Shown: positions 23,380-26,036 of the stretch, piece by piece
Numbering within the stretch: position 1 is the first letter of the stretch
Layout: each line of letters begins with the position of its first letter
Assembly: GCF_050920415.1 (NCBI RefSeq)
Contig: NZ_CP169309.1
DNA: 64,000 nt
Strand: one strand, 5' to 3'
DNA from: Escherichia coli
GTDB taxonomy: Bacteria; Pseudomonadota; Gammaproteobacteria; Enterobacterales; Enterobacteriaceae
Position numbers and translations under genes: made by a program
Notes under the pieces: generated by a model
The model's input: the letters and a program-made list of their open reading frames with translations, nothing else
The model's database searches: none
Told to the model about the DNA's origin: nothing

Positions 23380-23387
23380 AATAAGAT

Positions 23388-23421
23388 AAGGGGTTACCAA
23401 ATGGTAACCCCTTAGTTTTTT
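23388..23421 (+). terminator. Intrinsic terminator after serT (islet-side variant)
   Basis: Palindrome AAGGGGTTACCA/TGGTAACCCCTT followed by T-run. Confidence 0.6.
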
Positions 23422-23577
23422 AGAGCCTGGTATATTTTCAGCTCTCAATGCCAACAACAATTTTTACAACCACACCAGATCTCTACTCTCCAAAAAAGTC
23501 TCAATACCCCCTCCCTGACAAAATGCGAACAACATCACTTCACTAATCAGCCTGACATCGCATGCTTAGCAAGCTAA

Positions 23578-23862
23578 TTACGAATCCCCGGAGAAGGTGG
23601 AAACACGGCTGTAAGCCACACCCGCCATCATGCTGAATTAGCAGTTACGCACGGAGTCTTCATGCCAGCGGGTATAACTGTAACGGGTAAGCAGGCGATT
23701 CCTGTCTCCTGCATAGCTGAATGACGTCACCAGCCCCAGCGTGTCCGTAAATTCATAGCGGTATTTCACATTGAACCCGGTTAAATCATCACTGCCGGAC
23801 ATATCAGAACGGGCATGAAGATACCCGGCACTCAGTTTTGCCGGTAGTTGTGGCATCTTCAT
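23578..23862 (-). pseudogene. Lom/Ail/PagC-family outer-membrane protein gene remnant
   Basis: Translation KLSAGYLHA...[24 protein letters not shown]...RWHEDSVRN matches the Lom family; no signal peptide, in-frame stop after SVRNC, internal deletion, truncated after STFSGD. Confidence 0.7.
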
Positions 23863-23938
23863 CGTGTTTACGCCTTCGACATCCAGATAACCGTCACTGC
23901 ATTACCTGAAACCGACACCGTCACGGGTGTCCCCGCAT

Positions 23939-24287
23939 TCAGCCTGAATACTTTGATCCAGATTGCGATGCAGACTGGTCTGTAACTGTCGTCACCATAC
24001 CCCGGATTTCTGCCGCTCCAGACACTGTCTGTATCCTCGAAAGGATCGCAGAGAAAACTGGTGTTTGCTCGTTACCGTTAAAGTACAGGTGTTCAGCACT
24101 ACCCAGCATCACCAGATTCATGGTAAATACCTGGGCAGGTATATACACACTGTTACCGTTAAGCACATACGTATTCGCAATATCTCCGGTTACACGGAGA
24201 ATCAAAAGAGGGGAACCGCAGCCCGCAAAACGAAAAAGGCCACGCAGTTGCGCAGCCTCATAAATTGTGGTTGAAATCCGTTCGCCT
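23939..24287 (-). other. ORF fragment of unknown origin upstream of lom remnant (possibly phage tail-fibre-derived)
   Basis: Part of ORF 23939..24358; assignment rests only on position next to lom; its annotated N-terminus spans an intrinsic terminator, so it is likely a remnant. Confidence 0.2.
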
Positions 24288-24313
24288 ATAAAAAAGCCCC
24301 TCCGGAGAGGGGC
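24288..24313 (-). terminator. Strong intrinsic terminator (minus strand)
   Basis: Minus-strand hairpin GCCCCTC-TCCG-GAGGGGC followed by TTTTTTAT. Confidence 0.7.
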
Positions 24314-24615
24314 AGGTATACTCATCACTTTCATCATCTGCATGGCGCCGGGTGTCACCCGGTGAGTTCAGTATCAGCACCTGAATCCGCGATTATCCAT
24401 ATTCCTGCTTGCTGATTGCCCCTCCGCACAGGGGGATTCATCATGCGAAATTATTTTTAACAAAACGACGGGTTATTCTCCAGTACCCAACATAATTAAA
24501 TGTGATGTTTTTAACACTTTTAAAGATTTTAACTTAGTAGTTATTATTTTTAATACTCACCCCCGTCTTTATAGCGAATTTATATTTTCGTTTGCGCCAC
24601 TCTGTTTTAATACCC

Positions 24616-24753
24616 AAAAAAAATATCAATTATCGATAAAAATATAGTAAACAAATAAACACACTCCGAAAGAACCAATAACTATCATCGCTAATGCCAG
24701 CATAAATAGTTGTTGTACGCTTATTTTCACCGATGAAAGGTAACGCATAAAAG
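24616..24753 (-). CDS. Hypothetical 45-aa hydrophobic small protein (single predicted TM helix)
   Basis: Hand translation MLSTFMRYLSSVKISVQQLFMLALAMIVIGSFGVCLFVYYIFIDN; AGAGGA about 14 nt upstream; sits between tRNA cluster and terminator on the same strand. Confidence 0.3.
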
Positions 24754-24776
24754 TGCTCAACATACAGTACTAATAA

Positions 24777-24848
24777 TCCTCTATAAAGTGGTCAGCGGGA
24801 ATCGAACCTGCATCATCAGCCTGGAAGGCTGAGGTAATAACCATTATA
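24777..24848 (-). tRNA. tRNA-Gly (UCC)-like, possible pseudogene (glyT-like, no encoded CCA)
   Basis: GCGGTGATCGTATAATGGTTATTACCTCAGCCTTCCAGGCTGATGATGCAGGTTCGATTCCCGCTGACCACT; perfect anticodon stem, loop CTTCCAG; two acceptor-stem and one T-stem mismatch. Confidence 0.5.
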
Positions 24849-24849
24849 C

Positions 24850-24926
24850 GATCACCGCATGGTGCACCATACTGGATTCGAACCAGTGACCGATTGCTTA
24901 GAAGGCAATTGCCCTATACAGCTGAG
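24850..24926 (-). tRNA. tRNA-Arg (anticodon UCU), phage-type
   Basis: GCGCCGTTAGCTCAGCTGTATAGGGCAATTGCCTTCTAAGCAATCGGTCACTGGTTCGAATCCAGTATGGTGCACCA; all four stems pair (two G-U in acceptor), T-loop TTCGAAT, encoded CCA. Confidence 0.8.
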
Positions 24927-24930
24927 CTAA

Positions 24931-25004
24931 CGGCGCATGATGGTCCATGTTGCGCTTGAACCGGCGACCTTGCGGTTATGAGCTGCTCGCTCTGACCATT
25001 AGAG
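24931..25004 (-). pseudogene. Degenerate tRNA-like sequence with CAU anticodon loop (Met/Ile2-like remnant)
   Basis: D-arm GCTC/GAGC and loops CTCATAA and TTCAAGC are tRNA-like, but anticodon, T and acceptor stems do not pair. Confidence 0.4.
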
Positions 25005-25209
25005 CTAAATTATCAATAATTTTCTTTTCAATAGCATGCATATTCCAGCTACGTAATCCACGCTAACGTTTATTAAAAACAAATTCAACAAAAACAAAGT
25101 TAGTGATATTTTTTTATCTAATACCAACATTAATCAATATTATGTGATTTAGATAATCCGCCCTATTAAACAACTTCATTCATTAGCACAATGAGTGTTC
25201 AACTATCTA

Positions 25210-25238
25210 TTGAAATAAAAGAACATAAGAGGTATAGA
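25210..25238 (+). promoter_or_regulatory. Candidate sigma70 promoter upstream of islet ORF
   Basis: TTGAAA, 17-nt spacer, TATAGA, about 48 nt upstream of the ATG at 25287; sequence inspection only. Confidence 0.3.
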
Positions 25239-25286
25239 TATCTCCACAGCAGACATTACATCTAAAAGATCACCAAACCAGACATT

Positions 25287-25634
25287 ATGATAAAAAAGAT
25301 TTTTATAACGTCTTTAAGTATCCTCTGTATGGGGGTAATTGTGGATTATCCTCATATCGACAGCAGAATATCGACAAACGAAATAATCAATTGTCTTTCC
25401 AAGACTATGCAGAAAAGTGGTTATATAATGGATCTAAATGGAACTAAACTACCAATTAATGCAAAAGAATTCGCAACATACAAAATGTCAAAATACACCG
25501 GTTCATTCTGGATAGAATATTCAACAGAAGGAAGGCCAACAAGAGATGTTGGTATAATAAATGCAACAAATGATAGTTATAATATCTTGAACGATACATT
25601 GCAATTTTGTAGCAATATCATGGCAAAATATTAA
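25287..25634 (+). CDS. Hypothetical 115-aa protein with N-terminal hydrophobic signal/anchor-like segment
   Basis: ORF MIKKIFITSLSILCMGVIVDY...; AT-rich, Asn/Ile/Lys-rich composition atypical of flanking core genes; no recognisable motif. Confidence 0.45.
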   Translation: MIKKIFITSLSILCMGVIVDYPHIDSRISTNEIINCLSKTMQKSGYIMDLNGTKLPINAKEFATYKMSKYTGSFWIEYSTEGRPTRDVGIINATNDSYNILNDTLQFCSNIMAKY

Positions 25635-25973
25635 CATCAACAGTTAGTATGTGTACATCTCTGTGAGAAACCGTCGTAATATCAGTCAGCAACACCCCCC
25701 TTTTGGATGCAATTTCCACGACATAAAGGTGAAAGGTATCCCGGATTACGAAGGAAGTCGTCGCGACAAACAAATTTTCAGTGGACATAAAACAGTAAAT
25801 CAGGTGTTGATTTACGATCGTAAAAAAATCACACCAACACTGGATTTGCCGCTCGTGGTTAGTAAGTAGACAATCCAGAAAGTTTTCTGGCAAAAAGACT
25901 TGGTATACTAACTATCAAAAATCACCTAACATATTGATTTCTTTTGGCACTTAATTTGATTAACTTTTCAACA

Positions 25974-26028
25974 TTGAAAACCGGCGACCCGAAAAGGTTC
26001 CAGAGTTTGAATCTCTGCGCTTCCGCCA
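25974..26028 (+). repeat. Partial direct copy of serT 3' half (anticodon loop to CCA), att-like remnant
   Basis: TTGAAAACCGGCGACCCGAAAAGGTTCCAGAGTTTGAATCTCTGCGCTTCCGCCA, near-identical to serT 23325-23379 with two differences. Confidence 0.85.
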
Positions 26029-26036
26029 GATAAGAT

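Follow-up and report, generated by a model that had tools for sequence, protein, structure and literature searches.

A displaced part of serT borders the islet

The DNA analysed here, referred to as the window, is a stretch of 64,000 nucleotides from the Escherichia coli contig NZ_CP169309.1, and the element in question is a 2,594-bp interval (the islet) that lies between the tRNA gene serT and yccA and is absent from K-12. The structure of this locus, together with comparisons to intact prophages at the same site, indicates that the islet is almost certainly the non-functional remnant of a lambdoid prophage that was once integrated into serT. The following features define its ends.

23292..23379, + strand: serT, tRNA-Ser(UGA), the regenerated target; 5′ part from the host, anticodon loop onward presumably phage-supplied
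23325..23414, + strand: left copy of the attachment-site (att) repeat (attL core), comprising the serT 3′ part and a phage-type terminator (23387-23414); from a six-way alignment and a terminator scan
25974..26063, + strand: displaced host serT 3′ part (25974-26028) with a host-type terminator; from alignment

ARAGORN and Rfam (tRNA model, 57.5 bits) both identify an intact serT gene, which is the same as K-12 serT at 88 of 88 nt. Its last 55 nt (23325-23379) recur at 25974-26028 with 53 of 55 positions matching, a repeat that begins in the anticodon loop (TTGAAAACC...) and for which the chance expectation across the whole window is ~4e-20. With the K-12 empty site as the guide, K-12 positions 526-615 match two places in the window, 23325-23413 and 25974-26063; the repeat thus measures ~90 bp and extends through the serT terminator hairpin. 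Beyond the shared block, the left copy runs into a phage-type terminator, and the right copy runs into the host-type terminator of empty sites. The left terminator (GGGGTTACC/GGTAACCCC) differs from that of the host (GGGGTTAGC/GCTAACCCC) by a compensatory change that keeps the hairpin; in detail, the element at 23387-23414 carries a G-C to C-G swap and a shorter loop relative to the host copy at 26034-26063. Because the swap preserves the hairpin, the phage attP region would appear to supply the regenerated tRNA gene with a working terminator of phage origin. There is no third copy of the att core inside the islet.

This arrangement, in which an intact tRNA gene and a directly oriented, displaced fragment of it surround DNA that is absent from the empty site, and in which the left copy departs from the host sequence (variant terminator hairpin) beyond the block of identity, is that of a tRNA gene (tDNA) island. 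Such islands have a regenerated tRNA gene at one end and the displaced 3′ fragment of the host gene at the other (PMC4383910), and serT is listed among the insertion sites of Shiga toxin (Stx) phages (PMC13188871). Literature searches for a prophage at serT-yccA, and for ileZ argN argO, returned no match.

To assess how widely the site is occupied, a 321-bp probe spanning the K-12 serT-yccA junction was compared with 5,426 complete E. coli genomes. The probe matched in one piece, indicating an uninterrupted site, in 4,664 of them; the remaining ~14% therefore have other content at serT, and the site ranks as a common hot spot for integration. The islet was found in two of the 5,426 genomes. 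In MFDS1022581 (food, Korea) it is 100% identical, and in N96 (Tibetan pig) it differs at 2 of 2,594 positions, with 99.7% identity over 2,981 bp when the flanks are included. A preliminary description of this DNA had reported the intact tRNA-Ser and its 55-nt partial copy with two differences, had given a serT-yccA gap of ~200 bp for K-12 (it is 206 bp from the end of serT to yccA), and had judged the interval to be strain-specific, all of which is borne out by these data. It had also called the interval AT-rich. This is correct for the islet as a whole, which has a G+C content of 40.6% versus 50.2% for the window and lies near the minimum (0.402) of 2.6-kb windows sampled each 200 bp over the 64 kb, but only the part at 24401-25973 is truly AT-rich (35.4% G+C), and the left third has 48.6%. 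The outcome that would have spoken against that description, namely a 2.6-kb segment of core-like composition shared by K-12 and essentially all E. coli, is not what was found.

The islet fragments are collinear with an intact prophage at serT

Between the two repeat copies, the islet contains the following features, listed from the serT side to the yccA side. Those read from alignment to a related prophage refer to the Stx2k prophage of STEC005 or to a prophage of an ST866 genome, both described below.

23415..23587, no strand assigned: prophage terminal arm, non-coding; in related prophages, such DNA separates the final tail-fibre gene from the att site
23588..23836, − strand: lom′, internal fragment of an Ail/Lom outer-membrane protein gene with both ends missing and an internal deletion; a pseudogene in the NCBI annotation (Prokaryotic Genome Annotation Pipeline, PGAP)
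23837..24192, − strand: J′, the 3′-terminal ~360 bp of the tail-tip gene J; 93% identical to the J region of the M8 prophage, with a weak tail-fibre PHROG match
24185..24288, − strand: fragment of the segment upstream of a nanS-p esterase gene; 91.6% identical to ST866 L004 9001-9095, with a terminator-like hairpin at 24259-24236
24284..24476, − strand: gene for a small RNA (sRNA) of the STnc100 family (Rfam RF02076), with its own terminator at 24313-24296
24626..24763, − strand: hydrophobic open reading frame (ORF) of 45 aa, from the ORF list; open in ST866 too, at 90% DNA identity
24786..24858, − strand: tRNA-Gly(UCC), apparently decaying (ARAGORN; Rfam 45.1 bits versus 62.7 in ST866)
24860..24936, − strand: tRNA-Arg(UCU) (ARAGORN; Rfam 61.5 bits versus 68.7 in ST866), a homologue of the UCU tRNA-Arg that adjoins stx in Stx2k phages
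24937..25012 (about), − strand: apparently dead tRNA with a CAU anticodon, aligned to the intact tRNA-Ile of the STEC005 Stx2k phage; a homologue of the Stx-phage tRNA-Ile
25287..25634, + strand: ORF115, 115 aa, on the opposite strand to the late operon; PGAP places the start at 25341 (97 aa)
25699..25869, + strand: int′, the last 57 codons of a 339-aa tyrosine recombinase with the C-terminal motif ...LIYDR...; the N-terminal 282 codons are deleted
25870..25973, no strand assigned: phage arm of attR, from the int stop codon to the core; aligns with the attR arms of STEC005 and N96, which are 42 bp longer

The key to this arrangement is an intact 48-kb lambdoid Stx2k-converting prophage in STEC005 (NZ_CP041437.1, about 3016175-3063800), which occupies the same serT site. 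Its order is serT, tail-fibre fragments, lom, J, tail, head, terminase, lysis, stx2k, tRNA-Arg/Arg/Ile, Q, immunity, exonuclease, integrase and yccA. Each block of the islet is found in this prophage in matching order and on the matching strand, with the integrase adjoining yccA; int′, the late-region block, J′ and lom′ likewise keep the order and strands of the prophage in N96. These data support the idea, already put forward in the preliminary description, of a degraded prophage that targeted a tRNA gene.

The integrase fragment is carried by a 72-aa ORF (25651-25869) and sits in the expected place and orientation beside attR. It is identical at 52 of 57 residues to residues 283-339 of the STEC005 integrase, which carries PF00589, with 86% DNA identity over the int 3′ end, and PGAP annotates it as 'integrase, missing N-terminus'. 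In MFDS1022581 this type of int occurs at one place only, with no second copy. Relatives of the int 3′ end and attR arm at 80-90% identity were present in 685 further genomes, the closest at ~87%, and searches with the attL arm and the int′ end found no relative above 87% besides the two islet carriers. Of the two small ORFs of unknown function that the preliminary description had counted, this 72-aa frame thus proves to hold the end of an integrase; its statement that no integrase is present needs correction, in that a 3′ fragment of the gene adjoins the right repeat.

At the opposite end, the terminal arm is 89% identical over 23520-23583 to the distal end of the M8 prophage and 82.6% identical over 23428-23577 to sequence in A8, O158:H23 and ECOR29, the ECOR29 sequence lying ~2.4 kb away from its lom/J match; the full attL arm is present only in the two islet carriers. 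The decayed lom-like gene and phage-type tRNA genes noted in the preliminary description were recovered by PHROG 108 for the former and by ARAGORN and Rfam for the latter. The lom′ fragment matches PHROG 108 (Lom) with an E-value of 1e-24 over profile positions 30-94 of 199, and is 86-92% identical at the DNA level to intact lom genes. An Ail/Lom protein is a full barrel of ~200 aa with a signal peptide, which lom′ does not encode, and PGAP flags both of its termini as missing.

Two annotated genes overlap this part of the islet. The ORF of the PGAP 'hypothetical protein' WP_157945130.1 (23939-24337, − strand) starts in the STnc100/junction region and reads on into the J fragment; in all likelihood it is a chimera created by the deletion, not a true gene. 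A partial PGAP 'hypothetical protein' at 24338-24459 overlaps the STnc100 gene.

The late-region block (24185-25694) has genes on mixed strands and is 85-92% identical to the ST866 prophage. Its join to J′ shows an 8-bp microhomology (TCCGGTTA, 24185-24192). The tRNA/STnc100/ORF115 block of ST866, like that of another prophage, separates Q from the nanS-p/holin genes.

A set of replication, lysis or structural genes was absent from the islet ORF list and from the PHROG and NCBIfam searches, so that the remnant would not be inducible as a prophage. The islet also has no functional integrase or excisionase, and there is no second int copy in MFDS1022581; it is therefore unable to excise, or to replicate, on its own. 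Searches of phages with the whole islet by megablast returned short pieces only (lom, tRNA and int end), none above 10% coverage, and a promoter scan of the islet was uninformative, with 6 sites versus 8.3 expected.

Proposed integration and later deletions

The sequence of events that would best account for the islet begins with recombination between attP and serT by a phage tyrosine integrase, as is standard for tDNA elements. The crossover most likely took place in the anticodon loop, as this is where the attR arm starts to match serT. The phage copy of the tRNA 3′ part and terminator would have regenerated a working serT at attL, and the original 3′ part of the host gene would have been displaced to attR, beside the integrase gene.

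Given the match in order and orientation to the intact STEC005 prophage, at least four internal deletions then took ~45 of ~48 kb (~95% of the phage), probably by illegitimate recombination, and their junctions could be mapped. Listed from the yccA side, one removed int codons 1-282, the early region and the replication genes through Q (junction about 25694-25699), and another extended from nanS-p across the lysis, head and tail genes and spared only the end of J (24185-24192). A third took the lom start and the lom-J junction (23836/23837), and a fourth the lom end and the tail-fibre genes (about 23583-23588). In addition, a 59-bp deletion at 24288/24289, relative to ST866 L004 9096-9164, removed an AgvB-like anti-sRNA gene; the ST866 copy of this gene (RF02702, 56.6 bits) is convergent with STnc100. 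What survives is both att sites and a set of small, collinear fragments.

Several observations weigh against this reconstruction. No intact prophage carrying the int allele of the islet was found, the closest int 3′ end and arm being ~87% identical, so the ancestral phage is reconstructed from relatives and not observed. The best matches are also split between prophages, with M8 for lom/J, ST866 for the late block and STEC005 for int, and descent from a single phage is for this reason inferred. The loss of function proposed for the tRNA and sRNA genes is likewise read from the sequence, and the anticodon loop is no more than the most likely place of the crossover within the repeat.

The split in best matches could alternatively reflect two or more prophages, if a tandem array at serT had collapsed through deletions that spanned prophage boundaries. 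Tandem occupancy of serT does occur, as N96 shows. In this genome (NZ_CM169999.1 3024350-3075229), the order is hyaA, full serT, a 48-kb prophage, int, a copy of the serT 3′ part, the remnant, a further copy of the 3′ part, and yccA. The tandem partner of the remnant is an intact lambdoid prophage of 48 kb that carries two IS66 insertions. Over the int 3′ end and attR arm it shares ~77% DNA identity with the remnant, and the layout of the array indicates that a second phage integrated into the regenerated serT, using it as attB. Nevertheless, the islet is without the third, internal copy of the att core, the map of a single prophage fits the order and orientation of all blocks, and best matches scattered over different prophages are normal for lambdoid phages, which are themselves usually mosaic. 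A tandem-mosaic origin is therefore possible, is not needed to explain the data, and is in our judgement unlikely.

The boundary between the islet and the host differs between its two carriers. In the window, the right repeat copy has four private substitutions (25995, 26008, 26029 and 26044), and its counterpart in N96 has the K-12 sequence. Window and N96 show eight differences clustered in 129 bp (25995-26123), beginning inside the displaced serT copy, and this patch includes a CA indel that is also seen at empty sites of other lineages. A phage origin of the four substitutions was considered and is unlikely, as the N96 remnant equals K-12 there and the patch extends into the host flank. 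The patch looks like a boundary of homologous recombination at the att core, which hints at a possible transfer of the remnant or its flank from one lineage to another.

State of the sRNA and tRNA genes

The STnc100 gene scores 111.7 bits against a gathering score of 47 and covers model positions 1-206 of 206 (full length), and the ST866 copy scores 132.3 bits. STnc100 is a prophage sRNA family related to PasD (bioRxiv 10.64898/2026.05.13.724894). A side observation bears on its position: in the STEC005 Stx2k prophage (L007 33932-34014), an 83-bp segment directly downstream of stxB2 shares 79.5% identity with the 3′ terminator portion of STnc100 in the islet. This segment places the tRNA/sRNA block of the islet at the equivalent of the stx locus. 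The neighbouring 45-aa ORF possibly encodes a small membrane protein, judging from its hydrophobic sequence, and had no match in Pfam (DUF3927 included), PHROG, NCBIfam or PADLOC.

Both tRNA-Gly and tRNA-Arg score above the Rfam threshold. Compared with the ST866 copy, tRNA-Gly is unpaired at 2-71, at 6-67 and at one pair of the T stem, and has lost the encoded CCA. In tRNA-Arg every stem pairs, and a T stands in place of G19, a nucleotide that is near-universal in tRNAs. The CAU tRNA has a destroyed 5′ acceptor strand and T arm, and was not detected by ARAGORN, nor by Rfam at E<=1; its ST866 copy scores 28.3 bits. This combination of lower scores and broken stems suggests that tRNA-Gly, tRNA-Arg and STnc100 are eroding, in a pattern that fits relaxed constraint.

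ORF115 and the case for domestication

To judge whether ORF115 encodes a protein, it was compared with its ST866 copy. A ratio of nonsynonymous to synonymous substitution rates (dN/dS) of 0.18 for the ORF115 frame, versus 1.0-1.8 for the two alternative frames, marks ORF115 as a real gene, and it is the sole clearly intact one among the survivors. The protein begins with a hydrophobic, signal-like segment and contains two conserved cysteines; it had no match in Pfam, PHROG, NCBIfam or PADLOC. Its homologues form nine clusters in 5.8 billion proteins, those with a named source all coming from Escherichia, and a profile search of 1.84 billion representatives returned 14 proteins. A relative with 61% identity occupies the matching Q-to-lysis locus of another prophage. 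By tblastn against 50,697 phage records, one weak match to a Salmonella phage fragment was found, and no sequenced phage among these records carries ORF115.

Two of the proteins reached by the profile, P0013 (2,624 aa) and P0016 (3,294 aa), were rejected, since the profile matched them in 18-19 stretches and the matches are compositional, arising from translated simple repeats. P0013 is itself a translated simple tandem repeat (...RVARILVFKIRPSQEILKIRDGTPLE...).

An AlphaFold2 model of ORF115 was of moderate quality (predicted local distance difference test, pLDDT, 65.6). Foldseek searches of AFDB50 with this model gave matches at E<=1e-3 that are all uncharacterised enterobacterial 'exported protein' entries, and two of the next matches, just above the 1e-3 cutoff, are annotated 'L1'. 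No function could be assigned from the profile, structure and homologue searches. The most that can be said is that ORF115 is a predicted exported moron product at the locus where Stx phages carry stx. The preliminary description had pointed to the interval as a place for novel cargo; STnc100 belongs to a known family and the phage tRNAs appear to be decaying, which leaves one small, predicted exported orphan, ORF115, that is also present in other lambdoid prophages.

An alternative to simple decay is that the remnant is a domesticated mini-module, in which ORF115, STnc100 and/or tRNA-Arg(UCU), the reader of the rare AGA codon, benefit the host and were kept by selection when the remaining prophage DNA was lost. 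In favour of this, ORF115 is intact and the dN/dS value above points to purifying selection on its family, STnc100 lies far over its gathering score, the stems of tRNA-Arg are all kept, and the deletions spared exactly the moron-rich late-regulatory block. Against this, only 2 of 5,426 genomes carry the islet, and the dN/dS value records divergence between phage lineages and not time spent as a remnant; selection within the remnant is not measurable, as its two copies differ at 2 of 2,594 positions. Moreover, three stem pairs of tRNA-Gly are broken, G19 is missing from tRNA-Arg, STnc100 scores 20 bits under the copy in an intact prophage, and the neighbouring AgvB-like sRNA gene was deleted. 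We therefore consider such a module distinctly unlikely.

A narrower form of the proposal would hold that the remnant persists because ORF115 is a lysogen-expressed, host-beneficial factor, possibly together with STnc100, that was domesticated as a moron after loss of the prophage. As judged from its sequence, the family to which ORF115 belongs would be very small, two-cysteine and predicted to be exported, and its genes would sit in Escherichia lambdoid prophages at the moron locus that corresponds to stx. We regard this form as improbable. A tiny, uncharacterised family of predicted exported proteins at the locus of the Stx toxin is nevertheless a possible, low-priority target for functional work.

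Other explanations of the islet

A non-phage integrative element with some phage-like genes, such as a genomic island, an integrative mobilisable element or a satellite resembling phage-inducible chromosomal islands (PICI), would also be small, tRNA-associated, partly AT-rich and free of structural genes. Each identifiable block of the islet, the J and lom fragments included, maps on a lambdoid prophage, however, and int′ is of the type that adjoins yccA in the full STEC005 and N96 prophages, with related 3′ ends in the 685 further genomes. There are no replication, mobilisation or packaging-redirection genes and no defence matches (the latter by PADLOC, run on the three unassigned ORFs of the islet); without an intact integrase, replication genes or PADLOC matches, the islet has the marks of neither a satellite nor a defence island. 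Such an element is contradicted by the collinearity and is very improbable. An assembly or sequencing artefact has a negligible chance of being the explanation, given that the islet is present in two independent complete genomes, from Korea and Tibet, with 2 of 2,594 positions differing.

Elsewhere in the window, Rfam identified a cspA-type thermoregulator 5′ untranslated region (4048-4470, − strand) and a PyrD leader (52749-52822, − strand), both ordinary elements of the core genome.

Comparison with known elements

Taken together, these results place the islet in a textbook category, that of a heavily reduced cryptic lambdoid prophage at a tRNA hot spot, and it is not a new kind of system. 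It shows how a 48-kb prophage can collapse to a 2.6-kb scar whose regenerated tRNA gene is still usable as an att site, as in N96. Beyond annotation its significance is small: the function of tRNA-Gly and tRNA-Arg should not be taken for granted, and the PGAP gene at 23939-24337 is probably chimeric.

Relative to the STEC005 prophage, which is complete and carries stx2k, the islet keeps ~5% of a genome of this type. The tRNA-Arg(UCU) and CAU tRNA of STEC005 are homologous to those of the islet, and the islet tRNA-Gly stands where STEC005 has its second tRNA-Arg. Unlike STEC005, the islet has another attL arm beyond the terminator, an attR arm shorter by 42 bp, and no toxin genes.

The late-region block is closest to the ST866 prophage (NZ_CP077646.1, L004 9001-10571), in which a 1.5-kb block is 85% identical to the islet and contains ORF115, the CAU tRNA, tRNA-Arg, tRNA-Gly, the small ORF and STnc100 in common order and on common strands. 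The neighbours of this block in ST866 are Q and a methyltransferase fragment at one end and the genes for nanS-p esterase, holin and lysozyme at the other. The AgvB-like sRNA is part of the ST866 block, whose tRNAs and sRNA score above those of the islet. The prophage context of STnc100 in the islet, with esterase-associated sequence and tRNAs nearby, is as described for the family (bioRxiv 10.64898/2026.05.13.724894), except that the islet copy is without a late promoter region or Q.

In its ends, the islet resembles the tDNA islands catalogued by Islander (PMC4383910), which have a regenerated tRNA gene and a displaced 3′ fragment, and the start of its repeat in the anticodon loop fits an att site centred on the anticodon. 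Filters of the Islander type that need an integrase would probably skip it, as it is without a functional one. In its state of decay, the islet resembles the cryptic lambdoid prophages of K-12, which are also defective and have scattered surviving genes. Those prophages (DLP12, Rac and Qin) are roughly 20 kb in size, and at 2.6 kb the islet is far smaller.

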